IMG/VR virus record: IMGVR_UViG_3300045017_000165
Span: 1 to 64,000 of that record
Strand: one strand, 5' to 3'
DNA: 64,000 nucleotides
Origin: a virus
Shown piece after piece: positions 37,177-61,813 of the stretch (position 1 is its first letter; every line of letters begins with the position of its first letter). The notes beneath the pieces are model-generated. The model searched no databases. It saw only the letters and a program-made list of their open reading frames with translations, and had not been told where the DNA came from. A program made the translations under genes and the position numbers.

Positions 37177-40100
37177 ATGAGAACATTTCACGGCTCCGCG
37201 CAATTCGATGCATTGAAAACTACTGTTACTGATGCGTACAAAAAACTATTTCCAGTTTATGCCAAGGGGCAGGAAGGCAAGAGTCCGTCACTCCACTTAA
37301 AGAATATTTGGGTAGATGATGCAGAGCTGGATCCCAACAACTTTACAGATCAGAAAAAAACTAAGCTCGCAGGAAGAACTTGGGGAGCTCCCGTATTTGC
37401 GGACATCGAATTGAAAGACCCCTCAGGTCATGTCATTGACAAACTAGATAAAATTCGCATCTCAACCATTCCAAGGCTAACCCCGCGTGGCTCCTACTTG
37501 GTGCAAGGTAGTGAATATCAGATAGCCAATCAGTTCCGCAGAAAGGCGGGCGTGTACGTTCTACCCATGGCTACTGGGGATCAGTTCAAGGCGGTGTTCA
37601 ACGTTCTGGGAGAAGGCTCACGCAACTTTGAAGTACACCTTGATCCTAAGTCCAATAAGTACGCACTAAAGGTAGGGCAGGGGTTCATGCCCCTCTACCC
37701 GTTCTTAAACGCGCTCGGTGCAAAAGACGATGACCTGAAAAAAGCTTGGGGTGAAGAGGTGTTCGCAGCCAATAAAGTTGACCCCAATAAGCACGTACAG
37801 AAATTGGCTGAAAAACTTACGCGAGTAAAGACAGACAACAAACAGACAGCCATCGAAGCGCTCCATAACTTCGGCAAAGCAGCGAAGCTAGATCCCTCTA
37901 TTACCGAGCTAACTCTTGGTAAAAGTTACGCGCAGCTCGATCAGCACGCGATAATCGCAGCCAGCAAAAAACTAAAGGACGTTTACCACGGCGTAGTCGA
38001 ACACGATGATCCCGAGAACATCCTCTTTAAAGAAGTTCTATCAGTTGAAGACATGCTTCACGATAAGCTTACCAGTAAAACCCAAACTGATGCTCTTAAG
38101 TATTCGCTATCCAGAAAGCTCGGAAAGCGCACTAAAATCAAAGACATCGTAGACTTCAGACGTCTGGCTGGTCCTGTGGAATCTTTCTTCACCTCAGACA
38201 CCAGAAGCAGTACCCCAGAGCAGTACAACCCTATCCACATGCTCTCAGAAAGTCAGAAAGTTACCCTGCGCGGTACTGGTGGCATTACTGACCCACACAC
38301 CATCACAAGTAGTGTGCGCGAAGTTCATCCATCTCACGTAGGATTCGTGGATCCGGTGCATACCCCCGAAGGTGAGAACATCGGCGTCACCATGCACCTA
38401 GCCGCTGGAGCAGTTAAAGACGGTCGCGCAATCAGAACTCCTGCAGTAAATGTACGCACTGGTAAAGAGGAACTCCTTACCCCTAAAGAACTGTACACGA
38501 AGGTAGTGGCATTCCCAGATGAAGCTAATATCTCAGATAAGGGTGTGCAGTTCAAAAATAAGCTAGTCAAAGCGCAGCGTCTTGGAAAGATGTTAGAAGC
38601 CGAGCAACACAGCGTGGACTACGTGATTCCGTCGCATACGACGATGTTCAGCTACGCTACGAATCTCGTGCCGTTCCTTCACAGCGATCAAGGTAATCGT
38701 ATCGCCATGGCTGCAAAACACTTGAGCCAAGCAATCCCACTAGTCGATCGTGATGCGCCAAACGTTCAAACTGAGGTTGCACCTGGAAAGAGTTTTCACG
38801 AGGTGATTGGTAGGCAGTTCGCGGTCCACGCCCCTGAAGACGGAGTAGTAACTAAAGTTACGTCTGACTTCATCGAGGTCGGTAAACATAAAATTCACCT
38901 CTATAATGATTTTCCGCTAAGACAAAAAACGCTCCTTCACCACGAACCGCTAGTTAAAGTGGGAGATAAAGTTAAGAAGGGTCAGCTCATCGCAGACTCC
39001 AACTTTACAAAAAATGGTACGCTTGCCCTCGGTAAGAACTTGAAAGTCGCTTACCTCCCGTATCCGGGTCTAACTTTCGACGACGGTATTGTCATCACCG
39101 AAAGTGCGGCTAAAAAACTTTCAACTGTCCAGGTGTACAAGCACGCGTTTGAAGTTGAGCCGGGAGCCAAGAAAACTGACCTCCGCATGTACTCGGCTTA
39201 CTTCCCGAACGTCATTGGAAAAGATCTGCATAAAAAGTTTGACGTTGACGGTGTCATTAAAAAAGGTGCTGTCGTAAACCCTGGGGAACTCGTAATCGCT
39301 GGTTTGAAGTATGATCTAGCCAATCCTGAACTCGCTACACTAAAGCGCATTAATAAATCCCTCGCACGTCCATGGTCAAACGCAGGACAACACTATTCGG
39401 GTGAATTCCCAGGAGTAGTGACAGATGTAGTTAAGCGTGCAGATACTGTAGAAGTCTATATTAAAGCCGTCGAGCCAGCCAGAGAATCGGACAAACTATC
39501 GGGCGTTCACGGCAATAAAGGCGTCATTACTAAAGTGATTCTCGATAGTGAAGCGCCAAGAACTAAAGACGGAAAAATACCCGACGTTATCTTGAATCCT
39601 CACGGGATCATCGGTCGTATTAACGCCGGACAAATATTTGAGTCCGCCGCAGGAAAAATTGCCGAGAAGACCGGAAAAACTTACGTGGTGAAAAACTTTA
39701 ACGGTAAGAACACCGGTAAGGAAATTCTGAAAGAACTTGAGGCTCATAATATCGATGACATGGAAGAAATGTTTCTTCCTAATGGAAAATCGATGGGCAA
39801 AGTTCACATCGGTAATCCCTATATTCTCAGACTCTCCAAAACAGGTAAGACTGGCTTCTCTGCCAGAATGCCTGGCAGCGGTTATGACCCGAACCAGCAA
39901 CCTACTAAAGGTGGTGAAGAAGGCTCTAAAGCTCTCGACCTGCTCACATTCTATTCGATGCTTTCTCACGGTGCTAAAAAAAACCTTGCAGACGCTCACC
40001 AGAAATCAGAAAAAAATGACGAGTACTGGCATGCAATTGAAATGGGAAAACCACTTCCAGCTCCACGACAAACCTACGCGTTCAACAAGTTCATCTCTCT

Positions 40101-43100
40101 GTTGCACGGTGCCGGCGTTAATACTGTTAAACAAGGTAATAACGTCATTCTCGCACCGCTAACAGATGGTGCTGTTAAAAGACTTAGTCACGGTGAAATT
40201 AAAGAACCAGAGTTTCTTCATGGAAAAGACTTAAAAGAAAAGAAGGGTGGCTTTTTCGACCCTGCGCTTACTGGTGGTAAAGCCGGCAAGAACTACACCC
40301 ACATCGAGCTGAAGGAGTATCTGCCAAATCCAGTGTTTGAGCGCCCAATCAGATCACTCTTAAATTTAACCGCTGCCGATTACGCTGATATAGTGAGTGG
40401 CACTAAACATGTTAGTACTGAGGGTAAAGTCCTGACCACTTCCGCTAAAGGGACTCTTACTGGAGGCAACGCTATCCAGCATCTTCTATCAAAGATAGAC
40501 GTAGATAAAGAAATAGAAGCTACCACCAAAAAGCTTCCTTCTATGCGAGAAGGAAACGATCTTAACCAGTTGAGCAGAAAACTTCGGTATCTGCACGCGC
40601 TTAAGGAGCTCGATCTTAAACCTCAAGACGCGTATGTTAGAAAACTAATTCCCGTTGTTCCGCCTGAATTCCGACCCATTTATGAAACGGCTAAACGTGG
40701 TTTGCAGGTGGCGCCAGTAAATGTTCTCTACCAGAACGTTGGTATCCTAAACAAGTCTCAAGATCTCCCCGTAATGTCTTTACTCGAAGATTCTGAGAAG
40801 AAGGACTTACGTACCGAGCTTTACCACTCGACTAAGACACTCGCTGGTCTCGAAGAGATCATGCGCACAAAAGAACAGCCAATAAGAGGTTTCCTATCGC
40901 AGATCACTGGTGACACACCCAAAACCAGTTTCTTCCTCAACAAGGTCATCAATAAACGACAAGACCTAGTAGGTCGCGGCGTTATTACAGCATCTCCTGA
41001 TCTCCACATCGATCAGCTAGGTATACCCGAGAAGATGGCTTGGAAAATTTTTCATCCATTTATCATTAGAGAGTTCACTTCATCCGGTATTACTCCAGAC
41101 ATCGCGAGAAAAGAAATCGAAGAGAAAACTCCCCGAGCGAAACAGTTCCTTCAGACTGCGATGGACAAGAGAACCGTTCTAATGAATCGCGCGCCGTCAC
41201 TACACAAATTCTCTATAATGGCGTTCAAGCCGACCATCACTGATGGACTTGCTATTAAAGTGCCCCCGCTAGTTCTAAAGGGGTTTGGCGGAGACTTTGA
41301 CGGAGATTTTCAACAAAATCGCGTACTTGTTCATCTCACAGAAAAAGTTTTGCTTGAGATTGAGGAGGTACTTGGGCATAGTTACGCCAAGGAGCGCGAT
41401 GTGACCGCCAGATATAAAGAATCAGTGGTGTTAAAGAAGGGCGAAAAAGTTCTCGCTATCGATCTACAAGATTTTCCTGTCGGAGCGCTGGTAGCGACTC
41501 GTGAAGCCTCGAAAGGGCAAATAGATCTCTATGAAGCTATTCCTGGTACAAACGTTATTGCGTACGATGAGCAGAGCGGACGAATCGAGTTAAAGCCGGT
41601 GACCTATTGGTCCAAGCACTACGACCGCGAAGTAGAAATCGTTACTTTAGTGTCAGGGCGTCAAATCGTAACTGATGACGACCCCAGAGCCGTGTATGGA
41701 ATTCCAGCAGGATTTCTGTCACCTGCTAGGTTTACACCAGAACACGCCGTAGCTAAAACTGTATTAGTACCGCGTGCTATAAACATTAACCCCGTTGAGT
41801 CTATCGTAACCACGTATGTAGATCTCGAGACCGAGGAAGGGGACCTACTAGCTTTACCGCTCAACGAAAATCTTGGCTACCTGATAGGAGCCGCCGCAGG
41901 AGATGGCTGGAGTGACGACAGGCACTTCTGTCTGGCGTCAATTACTCCCGAAATTCCGGCTAAAGTTTTTGCCGCTCTAAAAGATCTCGGGCTAGTTAAA
42001 CCGGACAGTAAATTCTATAAGTCGGATCGTAAACAGGCTGGGCTGGGGGACGTTAGCTCCAAGTATTCGTGTGGCGGAGCTAGACTAGCCAAGTTCATTA
42101 AGCACAGCATCGGGCATCGAGCGAAGAATAAGCACTTACCCGAGTACTTTCTGGGTGCGAGCAGAGAGTTTAGAGAAGGGTTATTTGCTGGTTTGATGGA
42201 CACGGATGGGTCAATCTCGGTATCGAACGCAAAAGATAAAGTTTCACCGCAGTTGATGGCTAACTACAGCACTAATAGCCTTCGTTTAGCGAGAGAAATC
42301 CAGCTTCTCGCGCGAACGCTGGGGATTAGAGCTAGCATTACTGCGTCCAAAACTCCTGCGGGTAATCCATGTTGGATGATGAGCTTTTCAAACGTAGACA
42401 TCAAACAGTGGGATGGTAAGAGTATGCAACATCCCGGAAAACTAGCCAAGCTCGCTAGTATCCAAGAGATAAAGAAAACCGCCTCCACAGCTAAACTCGA
42501 TATCATACCCATCACCAAAGTGTTGGCTACGTTTATCGCTAAAACATTAGGAGCTCCAAGAACCGCTCCAACCGAACACAAAAGACTCTACGGAATTGCT
42601 AATCAGGCTGCTAAAGATGGATTCGTTTCAAGGCAGTCCATCGATGCTGTCATTGAAAAGATTTCACGCAAAGTCGTAGCCTCCCATCCCGACGGTCAAA
42701 GGTGGCTGGCACTACTAGACAATCGCGATGTCACGTGGGATCGCTGCGTATCTTTCGAGCGTACGGGTATCAAAGAAACCGGCTACGATCTCACAGTGCC
42801 AGGACACGAAACTTTCATGGCTGTCGACGGTGTCATCCTCTCTAACACAAGCACCATCCACGTGCCGACAAGCGACGAAGCCGTACGAGAATCTTTCAAG
42901 ATGCTCCCTTCACAAAATCTGTTTAAGCCCGGGACCGGGGAGTTGATGATTCAACCATCGCAAGAAAACGCGATCGGTCTTTATTTCCTTTCTCAGTCAA
43001 AGGAAGGGCGCGCCAGAATAAATGCGCTACTTCCCAAAGACCACCACATCTCAGCAGCTCTTGATAAGAAGGGGCTGGGTAGTCTCTTCAACAGTCTAGC

Positions 43101-44844
43101 TAAAACTCACACCAGACAATACGCCGACATTGTCCACAAACTTAAACAACTCGGCGATTCGGAAACCTACGCCAGAGGCTTTTCAGTTGGTGTAAAAGAC
43201 GTGGTTACCAGCACTGCGACAAGAGATAAGATTTTCGACATAGCAGAAAAGAAAGTGGCAGCACTCAAAAAAGCTAAGAAGCCGGGTCTAGAACTAGATC
43301 ACGAGATCGCAGGTATCTACACTTCAGCTGCTAAAGAGGCGTACGAACATACTAAACAAGATCTGAAGAAAAGCGATAATGCGTTCTACCATATGGTCAC
43401 CTCAGGAGCGCGTGGTAAGGACTCACAGCTACAACAGCTAGTCACTGCTCCAGGCATCGTGACCGACGCTAAAGATCGCCCAGTACCGATCCCACTAAAG
43501 CGTTCTTATGCCGAGGGTATTTCTACAAGTGATTACTTCGTTTCCTCTTACGGCGTTCGTAAGGGTATGATAGATAAATCACTTCAGACTTCGCAGCCCG
43601 GCGCCATGAACAAAAATATCATGGCGAATACCGTGGACAATATCATCACATCTCAAGACTGTGGAGTACGAAAGGGTATTGAACTACCGATCTCGAGTCA
43701 CGATGTTAACAACCGTTTCCTTGCTTCAGATCAGCACGGCTTCAAACGTAACACCCTAGTTACACCGCAGCTAATCTCGAACCTCACCAAACGTGGAGTA
43801 CGAACAGTACAGGTAAGAACTCCTCTGGAATGCATCGCTCCTAAAGGAACTTGCGCACACTGTTTCGGTCTTGATGAGCACGGTAAGGCCCCAGAACTCG
43901 GCGACAATATTGGCGCAAAAGCTGGTCAGGCACTATCCGAGCCTCTTACCCAATCCAGCATGAAAACCTTCCATACTGGCGGCGTAGCTGGTGAAGTTTC
44001 TATGCTCGGTGGATTTCCGCGCATTAAGCAGCTTCTCACAATGCCTAAGTATGTTGCTGGCGAAGCTCCACTAGCAAAGTTAGACGGCAAAGTGACGCAG
44101 ATTAAAACTACCACCAATGGTGCGCATGTAGTTATTGCGCCTCTCAGTAAAGAAGGAAAGCCTGAGATTCACCCGCTTCCACCCAACAGAAAAATAAAAG
44201 TTAAACTGGGGGATAAAGTGCAGGCGGGGGATCCTCTCACCCACGGGGTTCTTAACCCACAGGAAATCCTCAAGTACCGCGGAATGAAAGCCGCACAAAA
44301 TTACGTGGTGGATGAGCTAAAGAAAACTTACGACGAGATTTCGGGTGTCGGTAGGATGGAGCGAAGAGCCATCGAGACGCTTGTAAGATCGTTCGGCAAC
44401 TACACAAAAGTTAAAAGCGCTCCTAAGCAGGCTGACTTTAAACCAGGCGATATCATACCGTTCACTGTTGCAAATCACTACAACGAGACCCGTGCAGAGA
44501 CTTTACCAACCGCCGACTCAATGGGGTATAAACTCAGGTCTAGCGTTGGTAAACTCCCCCAATTCCATGAGATCGGGCACAAGGATATCGAATATTTGCA
44601 CGGGCTGGGCTACAATAAAGTGGACGTCGTAAAGGATCCCCTAATCCACACCCCGATAATGAAGGGCGTGGAAAGGCTCCCTAAAGAAAAGAAAGATTGG
44701 CTAGCTCAGCTTGGATACCAGCACATTAAGGACACATTATCCGAAGGTGCTGCGGAGGCTTGGAAATCAAGTCTTCAGGGCGAGCATCCAATCCCTGCTT
44801 ACGCATTTGGCGCCACGTTCGGTCAGAAAAAGGAGCACTACTAA
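37177..44844 (+). CDS. rpoBC: DNA-directed RNA polymerase, fused beta and beta' subunits, intein-containing
   Basis: Beta motifs: REVHPSHVGFVDPVHTPEGENIG, DKLSGVHGNKGVI, DVILNPHGIIGRINAGQ. Beta' motifs: IPVVPPEFRP, VLMNRAPSLH, GGDFDGD, SGARG, bridge helix, GQALSEPLTQSSMKTFHTGG trigger loop. Confidence 0.93.
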   Translation: MRTFHGSAQFDALKTTVTDAYKKLFPVYAKGQEGKSPSLHLKNIWVDDAELDPNNFTDQKKTKLAGRTWGAPVFADIELKDPSGHVIDKLDKIRISTIPRLTPRGSYLVQGSEYQIANQFRRKAGVYVLPMATGDQFKAVFNVLGEGSRNFEVHLDPKSNKYALKVGQGFMPLYPFLNALGAKDDDLKKAWGEEVFAANKVDPNKHVQKLAEKLTRVKTDNKQTAIEALHNFGKAAKLDPSITELTLGKSYAQLDQHAIIAASKKLKDVYHGVVEHDDPENILFKEVLSVEDMLHDKLTSKTQTDALKYSLSRKLGKRTKIKDIVDFRRLAGPVESFFTSDTRSSTPEQYNPIHMLSESQKVTLRGTGGITDPHTITSSVREVHPSHVGFVDPVHTPEGENIGVTMHLAAGAVKDGRAIRTPAVNVRTGKEELLTPKELYTKVVAFPDEANISDKGVQFKNKLVKAQRLGKMLEAEQHSVDYVIPSHTTMFSYATNLVPFLHSDQGNRIAMAAKHLSQAIPLVDRDAPNVQTEVAPGKSFHEVIGRQFAVHAPEDGVVTKVTSDFIEVGKHKIHLYNDFPLRQKTLLHHEPLVKVGDKVKKGQLIADSNFTKNGTLALGKNLKVAYLPYPGLTFDDGIVITESAAKKLSTVQVYKHAFEVEPGAKKTDLRMYSAYFPNVIGKDLHKKFDVDGVIKKGAVVNPGELVIAGLKYDLANPELATLKRINKSLARPWSNAGQHYSGEFPGVVTDVVKRADTVEVYIKAVEPARESDKLSGVHGNKGVITKVILDSEAPRTKDGKIPDVILNPHGIIGRINAGQIFESAAGKIAEKTGKTYVVKNFNGKNTGKEILKELEAHNIDDMEEMFLPNGKSMGKVHIGNPYILRLSKTGKTGFSARMPGSGYDPNQQPTKGGEEGSKALDLLTFYSMLSHGAKKNLADAHQKSEKNDEYWHAIEMGKPLPAPRQTYAFNKFISLLHGAGVNTVKQGNNVILAPLTDGAVKRLSHGEIKEPEFLHGKDLKEKKGGFFDPALTGGKAGKNYTHIELKEYLPNPVFERPIRSLLNLTAADYADIVSGTKHVSTEGKVLTTSAKGTLTGGNAIQHLLSKIDVDKEIEATTKKLPSMREGNDLNQLSRKLRYLHALKELDLKPQDAYVRKLIPVVPPEFRPIYETAKRGLQVAPVNVLYQNVGILNKSQDLPVMSLLEDSEKKDLRTELYHSTKTLAGLEEIMRTKEQPIRGFLSQITGDTPKTSFFLNKVINKRQDLVGRGVITASPDLHIDQLGIPEKMAWKIFHPFIIREFTSSGITPDIARKEIEEKTPRAKQFLQTAMDKRTVLMNRAPSLHKFSIMAFKPTITDGLAIKVPPLVLKGFGGDFDGDFQQNRVLVHLTEKVLLEIEEVLGHSYAKERDVTARYKESVVLKKGEKVLAIDLQDFPVGALVATREASKGQIDLYEAIPGTNVIAYDEQSGRIELKPVTYWSKHYDREVEIVTLVSGRQIVTDDDPRAVYGIPAGFLSPARFTPEHAVAKTVLVPRAININPVESIVTTYVDLETEEGDLLALPLNENLGYLIGAAAGDGWSDDRHFCLASITPEIPAKVFAALKDLGLVKPDSKFYKSDRKQAGLGDVSSKYSCGGARLAKFIKHSIGHRAKNKHLPEYFLGASREFREGLFAGLMDTDGSISVSNAKDKVSPQLMANYSTNSLRLAREIQLLARTLGIRASITASKTPAGNPCWMMSFSNVDIKQWDGKSMQHPGKLAKLASIQEIKKTASTAKLDIIPITKVLATFIAKTLGAPRTAPTEHKRLYGIANQAAKDGFVSRQSIDAVIEKISRKVVASHPDGQRWLALLDNRDVTWDRCVSFERTGIKETGYDLTVPGHETFMAVDGVILSNTSTIHVPTSDEAVRESFKMLPSQNLFKPGTGELMIQPSQENAIGLYFLSQSKEGRARINALLPKDHHISAALDKKGLGSLFNSLAKTHTRQYADIVHKLKQLGDSETYARGFSVGVKDVVTSTATRDKIFDIAEKKVAALKKAKKPGLELDHEIAGIYTSAAKEAYEHTKQDLKKSDNAFYHMVTSGARGKDSQLQQLVTAPGIVTDAKDRPVPIPLKRSYAEGISTSDYFVSSYGVRKGMIDKSLQTSQPGAMNKNIMANTVDNIITSQDCGVRKGIELPISSHDVNNRFLASDQHGFKRNTLVTPQLISNLTKRGVRTVQVRTPLECIAPKGTCAHCFGLDEHGKAPELGDNIGAKAGQALSEPLTQSSMKTFHTGGVAGEVSMLGGFPRIKQLLTMPKYVAGEAPLAKLDGKVTQIKTTTNGAHVVIAPLSKEGKPEIHPLPPNRKIKVKLGDKVQAGDPLTHGVLNPQEILKYRGMKAAQNYVVDELKKTYDEISGVGRMERRAIETLVRSFGNYTKVKSAPKQADFKPGDIIPFTVANHYNETRAETLPTADSMGYKLRSSVGKLPQFHEIGHKDIEYLHGLGYNKVDVVKDPLIHTPIMKGVERLPKEKKDWLAQLGYQHIKDTLSEGAAEAWKSSLQGEHPIPAYAFGATFGQKKEHY
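41308..42846 (+). mobile_element. intein with LAGLIDADG endonuclease, inserted right after the catalytic DFDGD of RNAP (non-canonical N-terminus)
   Basis: 513-aa insertion between GGDFDGD and TSTIHVP. LAGLIDADG motifs LGYLIGAAAGDG and LFAGLMDTDGS. C-terminal YDLTV...VILSN|T. Confidence 0.85.
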
Positions 44845-52317: not shown

Positions 52318-55260
52318 ATGGGAGACTCAGAGTTAGATTTCTTGCGCAGCGGCAGTACTGACGAGATAGAAGCCAACAGAGCAGCTTCCAGCGATGAGAG
52401 ACTCAAATCTCTAGCCTCTCCGGAACGCGTCGCCAAAGTCATGTCTGCGCTTAAATCTGATGGCTCCACCAAGACCCTGATCAAGGCTAAGAAGTCAGAC
52501 TGGATACGAGCCCTGATCCACCTCGACGGCACTAACTTCGACTTCTCTGGACGCGACTACCTAAAACAGATCTACGATACGAAGCATCCGCATAAACTTC
52601 TTGTCACGGGGCGTCAAGTTGAAAAATGTCAACCGATTTGGTCAACTATTCACAGAAGCGATGGGGGTGAATGTCGCATAGATGAACTTCGCTTAGGGGA
52701 CTCTATCTGCGCCATGAACCAAGGGGGCATACAGACGCAGGACTTAGTGTTAGCCTCGGAATCTAACGGTGTTAAAAAGTGTCTTCGCATAAAAACTCGC
52801 CTAGGCTCTACGATTGAAGCCACGTTGAACCACCCCTTTAGAAAACTACTCACATGGGAGCAAGCCTCTAAGCTAATAGTTGGTGATAAAATCGCGGCAC
52901 TTCGCAGTGTAGGGTTTTTTGGAGATAAGCAAAACGATCTGGCGATGGTAGTGGGGCTTCTGTTTGGAGATGGAAGCTTCAGTAATAGACTCATTTCGCT
53001 GGCGTGTGGAAGAGCTCCTATCCAAGAACTATTTGAAAAAGAGTATATTAGGCTAGAGGGTATAGCGCCTAAGTTTAGTTTGTCGAAAGGCTCAAAAACA
53101 CAACGAACCTATCGAGTCAGTGTCTCTACTAAAATAGCAGCGTGGTTCTACGAGCACGATCTGATAGGTATGGTTGCAAGCATCAAAAAATTACCCGCCG
53201 AAGTTTTCTCTTACAATAAAGAGTCAACTCGAAATTTGATCCGAGGACTTTGGGCAACCGATGGGCATTGTAAGAACGTAACCTCTTCTAAGATTGATTT
53301 AGTTTACTGCTCCACTAGCGAAACACTTGTTAGACAAGTGAGACTACTACTAAGAAAGTTTGGAGTTCTTACAACACTTCGTACGTATAAGCCCCAGCGA
53401 GGACAAAAAGCATTCCTTATTAGAGTAGTCACAAGAAAATCCATAGAAGCTTTTCATCGTGACATTGGACCTATTCCAGGAAAACCATTTAATATTCCCG
53501 GGTGTGAGAGCAATAGCAATTTAGATACTGTCCCTAGAGAAGTACTCAACGTATTGAAGAAAGCAAAACGTGCTGCCGGTTATGGTGGAAGATGGGGCAG
53601 CGACAACAAATGCTTTGAGCGAGATTCAGGGTTCCGGTTTAAGTCAAATTATTGCCCAACATTTGAGAAGTTAGCTGCTGCGCAGTCTTTACTCAACAAC
53701 TCTACCATACAGAAAATCTTAGACTCGGATATTATTTGGGATGAGATTGTATCAATAGAGGATTTAGGAGACCAACCAACGTGGTCTATTCAAACCCAAA
53801 CAGAAACCTACATCTCTGATTTCATAGTCCAGCACAACTCTACAATGCTAGCTAACGAGATCATCATCAACTCGGTAGTGATACCTTATTTCAAAACTCT
53901 ATATGTATCGCCGTCGCATGATCAGACAAGACAGTTCAGCAACGGAAAGTTAAAGCCGTGGATCGAAGATAGTCCTCTTATTCAAAAGTACTTCCAGAAC
54001 TCTGCCGTATCAAAGCAGGTCTTTGAGAAGAGCATGTCAAACGGATCGATTGCGTTTCTCAGGTCAGCTTTTCTAAGTGCTGACCGAACACGCGGAATAT
54101 CTAGTGATATACTATGCTTAGACGAGATTCAGGACATTTTAACGTCAAATATTCCGGTCATTACCGAGACCTTATCGCATAGTAAGTATGGGTATAAGAT
54201 TTTCGCCGGCACTCCAAAGACTCTTGAGAATCCTATCCAGCAGTACTTTGAGATGTCTAGCATGTGCGAGTGGTTGATACCTTGTTTCGCACACTCGCCG
54301 CCGCACTGGAACTACATTGATGAGAAGAGTATCGGTAAGGACGGACCAATATGCAATAAATGCGGCAAGCCCATTAATCCTGCTGAAGGTAAGTGGATAG
54401 CATTCAATGATAGTCGAGATATTCTGGGGTTTAGGATTTCACAGATCATGGTGCCATGGATCTATCAGAATCCTCTGAAGTGGAAGGAGTTCTTGTGGAA
54501 GTACGAGAACCTTTCGAGAGGTATTTTTTATAACGAGTGCTTGGGTATTTCTTTTGACTCCGCAAGCAAGCCTATTACGCGCACTGAATTAGTTGAGTGC
54601 TGCTCGTCAAAACATCCACTACGCTATCATCCAGACTCCTTCACGCATAAGATAGATCTATTTGCCGGTGTGGATTACGGCGAGGGCTCGGACGGAACAG
54701 AACGGGGTATGAAAGGAAGGATGAAGAACGCTTCGTACACAGTTCTTACGATAGGAGTCTATCTCGACCCAACACATTTTCATTACTTATTTATGAAACG
54801 GTATACTGGAGAGGAAGCTCTCCCAGCTAACTGTATCGGTGACATTATAAATATTGCACGAGCGTTTAGGGTTAAGTGCGTTGGTGCTGACTGGGGTCAT
54901 GGATGGGGAGTTAATGAGCAACTGGAAACTGCTCTCGGAAAGTCGCGCGTAATTAAGTTTCAATACGTAGGTAATCAGCGCGAGCGTAAAAAGTTTGATG
55001 AGATAGGACTTAAATACCAACTAGGTAGAACAGAAGTGATGACAGACTTTTTTACAGCAATAAAAAACCACCACATAATTTTTCCGGCATGGGAGTCAGT
55101 TAAAGATTATCTGTGTGATATCGAACATGTTTACGCCGAGTACGGAGATGGGGGAAGGTCGCTTAAGTATGACCACAAACCATCGGAGCCTGATGACGCG
55201 CTTCACTCAATGATTTATTGTAAGGAAGCCGCGGACAACTATTTCGGTAAGCACAAATAG
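52318..55260 (+). CDS. terL: terminase large subunit, intein-containing
   Basis: Walker A GRQVEK|ST (split by the intein), RGISSDILCLDEIQD Walker B, GTPK coupling motif, nuclease GVDYG...PDDALHS. Confidence 0.88.
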   Translation: MGDSELDFLRSGSTDEIEANRAASSDERLKSLASPERVAKVMSALKSDGSTKTLIKAKKSDWIRALIHLDGTNFDFSGRDYLKQIYDTKHPHKLLVTGRQVEKCQPIWSTIHRSDGGECRIDELRLGDSICAMNQGGIQTQDLVLASESNGVKKCLRIKTRLGSTIEATLNHPFRKLLTWEQASKLIVGDKIAALRSVGFFGDKQNDLAMVVGLLFGDGSFSNRLISLACGRAPIQELFEKEYIRLEGIAPKFSLSKGSKTQRTYRVSVSTKIAAWFYEHDLIGMVASIKKLPAEVFSYNKESTRNLIRGLWATDGHCKNVTSSKIDLVYCSTSETLVRQVRLLLRKFGVLTTLRTYKPQRGQKAFLIRVVTRKSIEAFHRDIGPIPGKPFNIPGCESNSNLDTVPREVLNVLKKAKRAAGYGGRWGSDNKCFERDSGFRFKSNYCPTFEKLAAAQSLLNNSTIQKILDSDIIWDEIVSIEDLGDQPTWSIQTQTETYISDFIVQHNSTMLANEIIINSVVIPYFKTLYVSPSHDQTRQFSNGKLKPWIEDSPLIQKYFQNSAVSKQVFEKSMSNGSIAFLRSAFLSADRTRGISSDILCLDEIQDILTSNIPVITETLSHSKYGYKIFAGTPKTLENPIQQYFEMSSMCEWLIPCFAHSPPHWNYIDEKSIGKDGPICNKCGKPINPAEGKWIAFNDSRDILGFRISQIMVPWIYQNPLKWKEFLWKYENLSRGIFYNECLGISFDSASKPITRTELVECCSSKHPLRYHPDSFTHKIDLFAGVDYGEGSDGTERGMKGRMKNASYTVLTIGVYLDPTHFHYLFMKRYTGEEALPANCIGDIINIARAFRVKCVGADWGHGWGVNEQLETALGKSRVIKFQYVGNQRERKKFDEIGLKYQLGRTEVMTDFFTAIKNHHIIFPAWESVKDYLCDIEHVYAEYGDGGRSLKYDHKPSEPDDALHSMIYCKEAADNYFGKHK
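52627..53838 (+). mobile_element. canonical intein with LAGLIDADG endonuclease in the terminase Walker A motif
   Basis: 404 aa. Starts with C (CQPIWS), block B TLNHP, motifs VVGLLFGDG and LIRGLWATDG, ends QHN|S. Confidence 0.9.
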
Positions 55261-56466: not shown

Positions 56467-56512
56467 AGACGTACCAACGAGCTGATGAACAGCAGTACTC
56501 GTGGGTACGTCT
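56467..56512 (-). terminator. hairpin closing the 3' end of pentamer array 1
   Basis: AGACGTACC-A-ACGAG / CTCGT-G-GGTACGTCT (14 of 15 paired), 5 nt from the end of the array. Confidence 0.6.
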
Positions 56513-56517
56513 CATTT

Positions 56518-56770
56518 CACTACGACACGTCACTTGACATTACTTTAACCTCACGGAACTTTACCTTACTTCACATGACGGCACCACGACCATACTTTAC
56601 TCGACCATACGTTACCATGACTTTACTCTACTCAGCAGTACCATACGGTGCTTCACAGTACCCGCACGCCACTCGACTAAACGGTACCATACCTCCACAA
56701 CACAGAACGGCACAAAACCCCACCCCACATTACCAATACTGGACTGGACAGGACGACACATAACCCTTAC
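56518..56770 (-). ncRNA. periodic pentamer array 1 (RNA sense GY-NNN units); putative guide RNA array for the Cas7-like protein
   Basis: The + strand parses without gaps into 41 pentamers and 8 hexamers, all ending in RC (47 AC, 2 GC). Starts 27 nt after the stop of the RAMP gene. Confidence 0.8.
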
Positions 56771-56797
56771 TGAAAGCCATCCATGGCAAACAAGTAG

Positions 56798-57589
56798 TTA
56801 CGCAGATTCGATCGTGCACTTGAACTGTCCGTAGCCTGCGTTTCTCCACTGACCTAAGCCCGACACTCTTCCGTATGAGAAGAGTTTCTTTAGAGCTTCT
56901 TCAGTGAGCGGGGAATTCTCAAGCACGAGAAGTGTGAACTTGAGAGCGGCTCCGGATTCAATGCACTCGCTTTTAGCTACAGAGACGCGTGGACCTTGAG
57001 CTGTCATAGCTCTCAGTGAACGCTCACAGTACTTGATTGAGCCATCAGCACTCTTCATCACGTCTTTATCAAACGAGATGAATTGTTGCTCAATTGTTAC
57101 GTGTTGATTAATGATCGATTCCGTATAGCTTGCTGAGTTGAGGATCGTACCATTCTTTTTAGGAAGAGTACGAGCTACCGCTTCAGCAGCTGCTTTTAGG
57201 AATCCTTTAATCATGTGATCTCCGATACACGGCATTCCTGCCTTGTCGCGGAAGAACACTGTAACGCCTCGAAGTTCTTGCTCGTCGAGAGTTTCTTTTA
57301 AAGATTCGAGTTCACCTTTGATAGCAAGTTCGCGTTCTTCTGAGGTGAACTTTCTACCCACGAGAGTTTCAAGCTTATCGAGAAGCTTATCGGTTTCAAG
57401 TTTACCGCGCTCTTCGGTGATCTGTAGAGCTTCTAGGTACTTATTAATCTCAGCGTTGTAGCTACCTTTCTCTTGAATAAGCTTACGCTGCTTTTGAATG
57501 ATATGTTGTTCGTGAATCGACGGATCCGCCGGATTCGTGCCCAAAATGTCACGTGTGAATGACAAGACTACTTTATATTCTTTAAACAT
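56798..57589 (-). CDS. stand-alone Cas7/RAMP-superfamily protein
   Basis: N-terminal strand YKVVLSFTRDILGT, P.IGDHMIKGFLK.A helix, ERSLRA...RVSVAKSECI thumb region, and C-terminal G-rich loop YG...GLGQWRNAGYGQF. Confidence 0.8.
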   Translation of the reverse strand: MFKEYKVVLSFTRDILGTNPADPSIHEQHIIQKQRKLIQEKGSYNAEINKYLEALQITEERGKLETDKLLDKLETLVGRKFTSEERELAIKGELESLKETLDEQELRGVTVFFRDKAGMPCIGDHMIKGFLKAAAEAVARTLPKKNGTILNSASYTESIINQHVTIEQQFISFDKDVMKSADGSIKYCERSLRAMTAQGPRVSVAKSECIESGAALKFTLLVLENSPLTEEALKKLFSYGRVSGLGQWRNAGYGQFKCTIESA

Positions 57590-57610: not shown

Positions 57611-57650
57611 AGCGGTCACGCTCTACACTAGTTCATAGAGCGTGACCGCT
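57611..57650 (-). terminator. strong hairpin plus U-tract directly upstream of the Cas7-like gene
   Basis: AGCGGTCACGCTCTA/TAGAGCGTGACCGCT 15-bp perfect stem, followed by a T-rich tract on the - strand. Confidence 0.65.
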
Positions 57651-58407: not shown

Positions 58408-59223
58408 TTACTCGGCATTTATTGAGATACCGGTAGTACCTGTTAACGAGGTCATAAGTGCAGGATCTGAACTAAAGTCTACACTCGTCACTGTAGCTCC
58501 ATAGAACCCCGTGGGGGCAGCTATGTCTACACAGGTAGATGAGTCGTAGGCTTTATAGGATCTAACAGTCCTTGACATTATGTCGTTAGTTAAAGCGACA
58601 TAATATACACCGTTATTGTTCAGCAGGACTTTGAGCATAGACCCAGCATCAGGATCATTATGACCTGAGGTTAGTCGGTTAGTCCTGACCACAGGAGTTC
58701 CGACGCACCCCAAACTAGGGTAGTAGATACGGGCACGAAGTCCGTACTCACTACCGAACTCGTTCTTATTTATGTTGACTACGAACCCACCAGTAGTATG
58801 CCAAAACGCAATGCCAACTGCGCTTTGACTAATTAGAGTTCCCATTACAACACCGAGCGAGTTCCTTACTACGAACCGAGGAGCAGCTGTACCAGCAGGA
58901 CCCTGGGCACCTTGAGCGCCCTGAGCACCTGTAGCTCCAACCGCACCCGCAGCACCTGTAGCTCCTGTGGCGCCTTGTGGTCCTTGAGGACCTTGAGCGC
59001 CATTAGATACTACAGCAGTGTTACCGCTTGGATCTGTGATACGAACGCCGTCTGACAGCTGAGTAATGGTGATTGAACCAACACTCATACTTTCACCGAC
59101 GCTAAGGTTAGTAGCCGCACCGTCCACTGGCATGACTGTTACGGATTCACTTACACAACCTGAGAGAACAGCTACTGAAGTTACAATCAAACTACCAACT
59201 GACATCATCATGAGCTTATTCAT
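58408..59223 (-). CDS. collagen-repeat lipoprotein
   Basis: Lipobox VLSGC and about 12 Gly-X-Y triplets (GAQGPQGPQGATGATG...). Confidence 0.75.
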   Translation of the reverse strand: MNKLMMMSVGSLIVTSVAVLSGCVSESVTVMPVDGAATNLSVGESMSVGSITITQLSDGVRITDPSGNTAVVSNGAQGPQGPQGATGATGAAGAVGATGAQGAQGAQGPAGTAAPRFVVRNSLGVVMGTLISQSAVGIAFWHTTGGFVVNINKNEFGSEYGLRARIYYPSLGCVGTPVVRTNRLTSGHNDPDAGSMLKVLLNNNGVYYVALTNDIMSRTVRSYKAYDSSTCVDIAAPTGFYGATVTSVDFSSDPALMTSLTGTTGISINAE

Positions 59224-60549: not shown

Positions 60550-60609
60550 GAAGGTAATTTTATCGCAATACCTAAAAAAGAGCCAGAGGGGAGCCGGCTC
60601 TTTCGGTTA

Positions 60610-60903
60610 TTAGTTCATCCAATTCTTACTGGGTATGACGAATGTTTTAACAGCATTATCTGAATCATCGGGGGATGATTGTTCTACTGCTGTACTCGCC
60701 TTGGCTGTCAAAGATTTGAACGTAGTAACGATCTTACTGAAATCTTTACTTAGTTTTTTAAAATCCCTGAGAGTTTTATTACTCAGTACTAACTGGCGCT
60801 TCATTTCAATCGCCTGACTACGAAGTTTTAAAATCTGAAGCATCAGATAGATGCATGTCAGTCCTAAAACAACTAATGAGACGCTGAAAACTTTGTTATA
60901 CAT
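60610..60903 (-). CDS. N-terminal TM plus coiled-coil protein
   Basis: An AAGGA RBS supports the ATG at 60903. TM segment VFSVSLVVLGLTCIYLML. Confidence 0.55.
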   Translation of the reverse strand: MYNKVFSVSLVVLGLTCIYLMLQILKLRSQAIEMKRQLVLSNKTLRDFKKLSKDFSKIVTTFKSLTAKASTAVEQSSPDDSDNAVKTFVIPSKNWMN

Positions 60904-60924
60904 ACGATTCCTTCCCAATAACAA

Positions 60925-61458
60925 GTAACGTTACCGTACCTTACCTTACGAAACCCCAACGCAACGCTACTGAACTCCACATAACTATACCACCACACAA
61001 CATAATCACCACTACCGCGCAACACATTACATTACCCCGCCAAGACAGTGCATTACTTCACCGTACTAAAGCTAAGCCCTACCGCACAGTACCCTACCCG
61101 AACCGGTTTCTACCGGAACACAACACTACTAAACTTAACTACACCATACCGTCACGTTACATGACGAAACTGCACTGACGCAGTACATTGCTTTACCGAG
61201 ACTTTACTACACTCAACGACACTTCACGCTACCCAACCGTGACTTTACTGCACCCTACTACACATCACGATACCTCACTGTGGCTTTACCCCACGACACA
61301 CCACCCAATCAAACATCACCATACCGCACGGGACTCTACCGAGACGCTGCCATGCTGGACGTTACTTTGCCATAGCAATACTGCACAACACGTTACCCGA
61401 CCTTACCATAGCATCACCTTACAACACGAGACCTTGCGTCACTGTAGCATCGCAGTAC
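60925..61458 (-). ncRNA. periodic pentamer array 2 (GY-NNN units, ~100 units)
   Basis: Same NNNRC pentamer / YNNNRC hexamer grammar as array 1, with a few degenerate units. Begins at the stop codon of 61458..61709. Confidence 0.8.
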
Positions 61459-61709
61459 TAATGTGCAGTATCGTTACGGACTTCGTCTGAACTAAACGAT
61501 GTCGCCGCAACGTAATTATTTTTTTCCTGTGGTGGATAAACAAGAAAAACCGTCCTGCCGTTTAGTACGACTGGAAGCATAGTGTGTATTCCTGTCGTAG
61601 CTACTTTGGAAGATTCTTCCAAAATATCCGCAAGAGCTCTTAGCTGCTCTGGCGAAGTTTCAAATAATTGCCCGTGTACAACTTGTCCCGTAGTTTTAAA
61701 TTTTTCCAC
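61458..61709 (-). CDS. hypothetical protein immediately upstream of array 2
   Basis: GGGGAG RBS, GTG start, 83 aa. Confidence 0.55.
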   Translation of the reverse strand: MEKFKTTGQVVHGQLFETSPEQLRALADILEESSKVATTGIHTMLPVVLNGRTVFLVYPPQEKNNYVAATSFSSDEVRNDTAH

Positions 61710-61727: not shown

Positions 61728-61762
61728 AAAAAAGGGAGCCGTCTAAAAGATAGACGACTCCC
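61728..61762 (-). terminator. intrinsic terminator
   Basis: GGGAGTCGTCTA/TAGACGGCTCCC followed by a T run on the - strand. Confidence 0.7.
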
Positions 61763-61813
61763 AAGTTGGTTTTCACTACTTTAAACTTATACCATTTAAA
61801 TTAATGGTTTAGT

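Follow-up and report, generated by a model that had tools for sequence, protein, structure and literature searches.

The window, that is, the whole stretch of 64,000 nucleotides that was analysed, constitutes the first 64 kb of a single-contig phage genome of 84.7 kb, and the public runs containing its sequence are lake-water DNA metagenomes. Structural genes and the large terminase gene occupy the plus strand up to 55.3 kb; beyond this point the genes lie on the minus strand, including that of a family A DNA polymerase. On the plus strand, a single ORF of 2,555 aa spans 37177-44844, and the large terminase gene (52318-55260), which encodes a GpA ATPase domain, is split by an intein that contains Hint/Intein_splicing and LAGLIDADG_3 domains. 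Within the minus-strand part, 534 bases (60925-61458) carry no coding signal and show a G-pyrimidine pair every 5 bases. This element is called array 2 here, and a similar one beside a gene for a Cas7-like protein is called array 1. The names vipr and vrRNA used below are those of the VIPR system, with which both are compared further on.

56500-56770, minus strand: array 1, about 50 GYNNN units in 7-8 blocks, beginning 27 nt past the stop codon of the vipr candidate
56798-57589, minus strand: vipr candidate, encoding a 263-aa Cas7-like RAMP protein with the G-loop GLGQWRNAGYGQF at residues 244-256
60575-60606, minus strand: hairpin AGAGCC...GGCTCT followed by a T-run, just past the small ORF downstream of array 2, read from the sequence
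60610-60903, minus strand: small ORF directly downstream of array 2, with a hydrophobic N-terminus and no family match
60925-61458, minus strand: array 2, about 100 GYNNN units in about 15-17 blocks (candidate vrRNAs) of 4-8 units
61458-61709, minus strand: 83-aa ORF without a family match, with a GTG start and the RBS AGGGGAG, immediately upstream of array 2
61734-61762, minus strand: terminator-like, GC-rich 12-bp hairpin with a T-run behind it, upstream of the 83-aa ORF
61786-61793, minus strand: GGTATAAG box, candidate promoter element of the phage, ahead of the 83-aa ORF and array 2

Lag-5 identity within 60925-61458 was 0.48, compared with a composition expectation of 0.28, and the values at lags 10, 15 and 20 were 0.42, 0.38 and 0.34. 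Lags 3 and 6 gave 0.25 and 0.26, and no period-3 signal was detected in this interval. When read on the minus strand, the interval was parsed into 91 pentamers, 16 hexamers and 2 odd units, in agreement with the roughly 100 units that had been predicted, and 85 of the 91 pentamers begin with GY (75 GT and 10 GC). GY-N3-GY pairs numbered 86, against 29.8 ± 4.5 (maximum 42) in 300 dinucleotide-preserving shuffles. The scan of the genome for a period-5 signal that accompanied the original prediction as a proposal was carried out with a sliding window, and only two regions exceeded 4 SD (56471-56791 and 60871-61501), i.e. the two arrays.

Both arrays are parsed as GYNNN on the minus strand, and the claim that they share strand and grammar was thus confirmed. 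They have no block in common, so that their variable bases differ as had been stated, and GC-type units are more frequent in array 2 (10/85 pentamers and 6/16 hexamers) than in array 1 (3/46 and 0/8). The plus-strand hexamers CGAGAC and CATAGC, previously noted as occurring twice each, are the minus-strand punctuation hexamers GTCTCG and GCTATG, with 2 copies each in array 2. Every block of array 2 is closed by a hexamer of the form GYNNN(G/A), and the blocks measure 16-41 nt, plus one of 61 nt. The base preceding GY is G in about 26% of the in-block units. The blocks abut directly, with no invariant spacer and no 3' tail or pseudoknot between them. The predicted RNA of array 2 was slightly less structured than shuffled sequences (z +1.16), as expected for a protein-coated guide.

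An Rfam search at E <= 1 over 55-64 kb returned a chance miRNA match only, and blastn of the array region against 50,697 phage records gave no match. No CRISPR-like repeats were found in the window, and the neighbouring and large ORFs contained no Cas family apart from the lone RAMP fold. The features that define CRISPR-Cas, namely a 23-50 nt repeat-spacer array, a Cas1/Cas2 adaptation module and a multi-protein or Cas9/12/13 effector, were not found there.

Array 2 fills the gap between two small genes and starts, as the original prediction had it, at the upstream stop codon, its first G being the G of the TAG stop of the ORF 61709-61458 (minus strand). It ends just before the RBS GGAAGG of the downstream small ORF, whose likely start is the ATG at 60903 behind this RBS (the ORF list gives TTG at 60924). 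The only minus-strand ORF of at least 40 aa inside 60925-61458 is a 50-aa frame (60873-61025) that overlaps the array end, and a 100-aa plus-strand ORF (61188-61490) also overlaps array 2. The octamer GRTATAAG has 9 matches in the window versus 3.45 expected. Seven of these are minus-strand copies (2867, 20689, 37132, 45803, 46758, 57992 and 61786), mostly upstream of minus-strand gene groups. In 5' to 3' order, the GGTATAAG box is followed by the terminator-like hairpin and then by the 83-aa ORF, and this hairpin may either end an upstream unit or attenuate the unit of array 2. The hairpin at 60575-60606, left unflagged by the hairpin scan because its loop is longer than 8, is likely the end of the transcription unit containing array 2. 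Given the GGTATAAG box upstream and the hairpin with its T-run after the downstream ORF, array 2 probably sits in a small minus-strand transcription unit.

The vipr candidate lies on the same strand as array 2, which is 3.3 kb and five ORFs away. One of the products encoded between them, in a region of non-structural genes, is a 271-aa protein with collagen-like Gly-X-Y repeats and tail-fibre-like PHROG matches (58408-59223, minus strand), and the collagen-like repeat was found joined to different flanks in other lake contigs. A perfect 17-bp hairpin followed by TTTATTT (57611-57650, minus strand) stands 21 nt upstream of the vipr start codon and may either terminate transcription of the small ORF before it or regulate vipr. 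An imperfect hairpin is present near 56470-56510, after array 1.

No Pfam family was found for the 263-aa protein, and its best PDB sequence matches were to Csm4 proteins, in their G-loops. The AlphaFold model, for which 46 homologues were used, had a mean pLDDT of 80, and Foldseek returned >160 matches at E <= 0.001; all among the matches listed are Cas7/Csm3-type RAMPs, indicating that the earlier designation "Cas7-like" is correct at the level of the modelled fold.

At E <= 0.001, 274 homologues of this protein were retrieved, all metagenomic and mostly on phage-sized contigs; the nearest ones share 71-78% identity and lie on short contigs. A period-5 array adjoins the gene in all of the 80 best viral-contig loci (80/80), and nearly all of 60 metagenome loci with enough flank have an array too; in the latter, the dinucleotide that recurs on the strand of the gene is GT or GC and never AC. 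The neighbours of this genome's vipr were sought across 141 loci, and neither a family in common nor an accessory (vap) gene was found; no Pfam or PHROG function was assigned to the ORFs neighbouring vipr. When 13 neighbouring proteins were compared by tblastn with all loci, only synteny of polA was detected (in L084, L001 and L099), and no syntenic counterpart of array 2 was found by the same comparison. Since the flanking genes have no counterparts apart from polA, the mobile unit would thus comprise the vipr gene and its array.

The anatomy of the arrays is also shared among relatives. In the arrays of 15 relatives, blocks mostly consist of 5-8 pentamers closed by a hexamer, whose sixth base is G in 312 of 357 cases, and GGY is kept only at block starts. 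The G at the end of a closing hexamer thus gives the following block a canonical GGY start, and the phase shifts by +1, which is the staggered layout. Among 97 related array pairs, the G was substituted at 1.2% of sites and the Y at 7.3% (55% of the changes being C/T exchanges), and the three variable positions were changed at 7.0%, 8.3% and 11.4%; the low substitution of G indicates that the array grammar is under selection. Among relatives, 20-kb loci seldom contain a large GY array detached from the gene. A gut-associated clade (L031, L034, L036, L039, L047 and L059) with a GC-type repeat has two arrays upstream of vipr, one of them about 1.1 kb off, so split arrays exist elsewhere too.

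VIPR is a CRISPR-related DNA-silencing system first described in 2026 (bioRxiv 10.64898/2026.04.26.720920), in which protomers of the Vipr protein polymerise along guide RNAs made of pentamer repeats. According to that preprint, phage-encoded Vipr is an early-branching RAMP, and its vrRNAs consist of 9-16 YNNGG repeats, in which NN pairs with DNA and one target base in three is skipped; the system was shown to silence rival phages and satellites. The methods list the alternative repeats NNNGG, YNNNG and NNNNG, and the legend to fig. S18 describes staggered arrays, with neighbouring vrRNAs offset by 1 nt; as the preprint itself words it, staggered arrays are not among the arrays confirmed by small-RNA sequencing. 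The published loci, as described there, have vrRNAs both upstream and downstream of the genes, and "typically" two genes. In a cryo-EM study, one protomer was found per repeat, with G1 read by H17 and D177 and G2 by R138 and W178; R179 is part of the pocket that reads Y3 (bioRxiv 10.64898/2026.04.26.720927). Orphan vrRNAs acting in trans have also been reported (bioRxiv 10.64898/2026.10.15.759431).

Among the closest known counterparts is the staggered VIPR with YNNNG repeats (720920). It shares with the present locus a lone phage gene for a Cas7-like RAMP, the lack of CRISPR repeats and of cas1/cas2, 5-nt repeats in which only G and Y are fixed (GYNNN being YNNNG rotated), and an uninterrupted array of directly adjoining guides, each offset by 1 nt from the next. 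Unlike in this counterpart, 3.3 kb and five ORFs lie between vipr and array 2, which is wedged between two small ORFs, and no recognisable vap is present.

The type II VIPR of Escherichia phage SUSP1 (NC_028808; vipr AVU07_agp039, vap1 agp038, four vrRNAs; PDB 36pp), in which GGYNN tracts with tails were confirmed beside agp039, resembles the present locus in its phage-encoded Vipr with the G-loop G-x-G-x-W-R, in arrays on the gene's strand, in vrRNAs on both sides of the protein genes and, as proposed here, in one protomer per 5-nt repeat. Its repeats are GGYNN, in 9-16 units with a conserved 3' pseudoknot tail, whereas those of the lake phage are NGYNN/GYNNN, in 4-8 units per block without a tail. 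The protein has 263 aa here and 195 aa in SUSP1, the G1-reading residue is Asp in SUSP1 and Gln here, and the similarity covers only about 49 residues. Placed around the G-loop only, the hhalign alignment of the 46-sequence profile with SUSP1 Vipr had a probability of 71% and an E value of 3.6e-5 over 49 columns, and PDB 36pp ("SUSP1 Vipr protein") reached only E 0.85. The profile alignment sets Q247-W248-R249 of the 263-aa protein on D177-W178-R179 of SUSP1. Gln occupies this G-loop position in all 47 scorable relatives, whose mean G1 frequency is about 0.27; the covariation between the G-loop residue and G1 frequency is uninformative, as all 47 loci have Gln. In a comparison of two classes only, the exchange of the G1-reading Asp for Gln is suggestive and would fit the loss of the first G from the repeat.

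The backbone of Class 1 CRISPR-Cas (Cas7/Csm3/Cmr4 on crRNA) shares the RAMP fold with G-loop and thumb, and the repetition of protomers along the guide RNA with periodic flipping of bases is a likeness that we also propose here. In Class 1 systems, however, the period is 6 nt on a contiguous spacer with repeat handles, and Cas6 processing, Cas1/Cas2 and other subunits take part, none of which was found here. Solo or orphan vrRNAs of VIPR-null phages and satellites (bioRxiv 10.64898/2026.10.15.759431) resemble array 2 in lying away from vipr and, as proposed for array 2, in acting in trans. They are defined by the lack of a vipr on the contig or within 20 kb; since a vipr lies 3.3 kb away on the same strand here, "orphan" is a loose term for array 2.

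We consider it probable, at about 85%, that array 2 belongs to a VIPR system as its second vrRNA array, with the Cas7-like protein encoded at 56798-57589 (minus strand) as the effector, and the array most likely contains about 16 short guide RNAs. Its best reading on sequence grounds is that of a detached, staggered, YNNNG-type vrRNA array, in a system of a class that was published in 2026. The features observed directly are the periodic grammar, the RAMP fold, the family-wide link of gene and array on one strand and the conservation of the G; transcription of array 2, its binding by the protein, its block-wise use, silencing and its targets are what we infer. The minus strand would be transcribed, probably as a unit of small ORF, array and small ORF, and one Vipr protomer would occupy each 5-nt unit, holding the fixed G and pyrimidine and exposing the variable bases. 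A block of 4-8 units would then form a short filament recognising about 15-24 bp of dsDNA of a rival phage or satellite, leading to its silencing, and each block boundary would be a phase slip of +1, in which the hexamer ends in G and the next block starts with GGY. The original prediction had described array 2 as a trans-acting guide reservoir. By comparison, this holds as far as the link between gene and array and the grammar and punctuation reach; as the latter two are the same as in array 1 and in the arrays of relatives, a guide set used in trans is the best reading of array 2.

Several observations run against the VIPR reading. No conserved vap gene lies beside vipr in the subfamily, a 3' tail or pseudoknot like those of the characterised type II vrRNAs is lacking, and the similarity to SUSP1 Vipr is confined to about 49 residues. 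Five ORFs separate array 2 from vipr in a family in which large detached GY arrays are uncommon, and a terminator-like hairpin stands between the candidate promoter box and the array 2 unit. The canonical GGY/NN repeat is not the rule in array 2, where GGY is kept at block starts only; the alternative YNNNG class has been published, and this departure is thus compatible with membership in VIPR.

The variable triplets (positions 3-5; 5,136 units) showed a codon-like signal. Their frequencies correlated with in-frame sense codon usage (r = 0.76), compared with 0.27-0.44 for other frames and antisense, and a residual correlation of 0.42 was retained once positional composition had been removed. 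Stop triplets were depleted (184 observed versus 290 expected): a purine at position 5 was rarer after TA than after VA (odds ratio 0.65, p = 0.001) and A was rarer after TG (odds ratio 0.58, p = 0.002), and no depletion was seen in a shifted frame. Targets of published VIPR are coding and wobble-aligned, and the signal suggests agreement with such targets, with the third variable base tracking the wobble base. This base would either be read, or the guides would arise as copies of their targets. A more tentative and rather doubtful extension is that the subfamily with Gln in the G-loop uses 3 informative bases per protomer instead of 2. Given the likeness of the triplets to sense codons, a whole target codon might then be read per 5-nt step without a skipped base, with the GGY slip alone setting filament boundaries, so that one long transcript lying between two ORFs, like that of array 2, would serve as about 16 guides without processing. 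In a relative with a 64% identical Vipr (L081:1751-3661), the array runs for at least 1.9 kb to the contig end and has about 49 blocks, the long ones of which mostly end in GTGAA. Several paralogous block families differ at 1-2 variable bases; as triplet strings they read RGGNEIKPE and KGGSEIKPE, and RPDGFRCFYVE occurs twice with one third-base change.

Candidate targets were searched with 22 guides under 9 pairing rules in the phage's own genome and 140 loci, and the best-site mismatches equalled those of shuffled controls, apart from the trivial period-5 self-match. No enrichment was obtained with 514 guides from all loci under 8 rules. Targets of type II VIPR are matched under a gapped rule (xNN). 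NNx patterns of 3 guides gave 16, 2 and 13 matches in viral contigs (about 3.4e10 bases), which is close to chance, and the third-base matches for these guides were 2.2/8, 0/9 and 3.3/8; collection scans with two long guides of relatives (14 and 15 units) yielded 0 matches. At L168:9873-9895 (minus strand), 22 of 24 bases agreed with the joined variable triplets of one block of array 2, that at 61237; the site is intergenic, about 40 nt upstream of a 470-aa ORF without a family. This match was left uncounted, as its estimated p of about 0.07-0.2 is not significant after correction.

The original prediction also held that array 2 implies a way to generate or diversify arrays, and for this no evidence emerged. 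Contigs of 2018 lake runs cover array 2 at 60938-61337 with three low-depth C>A differences from the window sequence, and two array 1 pieces without differences, and the window sequence is near-identical in 2025 runs. No turnover between 2018 and 2025 was seen where the arrays were covered, and the VIPR papers describe no acquisition machinery.

Alternative roles for array 2 were weighed against its use by the neighbouring protein. It could be a decoy or counter-weapon that loads the Vipr proteins of rivals, or a sponge that soaks up the Vipr of the phage itself. Orphan vrRNAs are known to exploit or mislead a Vipr in trans (bioRxiv 10.64898/2026.10.15.759431), and the detachment of array 2 from vipr in what is probably a small transcription unit of its own and its larger share of GC-type units than array 1 would suit such a role. 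We regard this as very unlikely, since array 2 agrees with array 1, the neighbour of vipr, in its GY grammar, in the lengths of its blocks and in the hexamers that punctuate them, and since the phage has its own Vipr, use by that protein being simpler to assume; moreover, no guide matched the vipr genes or arrays of 140 relatives above shuffled controls. That array 2 is no longer used, as a relic that arose by duplication of a vrRNA array and then diverged, would accord with its distance from vipr, the terminator-like hairpin upstream and the targets not found, but is highly improbable. Its grammar is intact over 534 nt, with 85 of 91 GY pentamers and regular blocks, where it was covered its sequence was unchanged between 2018 and 2025, and the G is substituted 6-10-fold less in related arrays, whereas unused arrays should decay.

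T4-type primers are pentaribonucleotides, and the plus strand of array 2, which reads (ACNNN)n, resembles a concatenation of them. The pattern might thus be a DNA-level element (dense primase sites, or a binding or structural element) unrelated to the Cas7-like gene, and the overlapping 100-aa plus-strand ORF (61188-61490) might alternatively make it a coding region. Both notions are scarcely credible, as such arrays accompany vipr homologues, with one constant orientation, at >130 loci that are otherwise unrelated, array 2 lacks a period-3 signal, and the plus-strand ORF is expected from the G-poor, stop-poor composition. Primase-site arrays, like a TRAP-like or nucleocapsid-like RNA scaffold, were dropped once the linkage to vipr had become clear.

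No new class of system is revealed by the second vrRNA array that we take array 2 to be. What it adds is a clean natural example of the least characterised VIPR layout, with staggered arrays of YNNNG repeats. Its source is an environmental phage that belongs to a poorly known lineage and has few gene families that can be recognised. The patterns of the subfamily provide testable hypotheses on the reading of non-canonical VIPR codes and the delimitation of guides, namely the GGY phase slip as punctuation, Gln in place of the G1-reading Asp and codon-like triplets, in which the third variable position evolves fastest. On this reading, kilobases can separate a large guide array from the gene of its effector, with the array placed within a different small operon, and such distant placement would matter for tools that call VIPR loci by adjacency.
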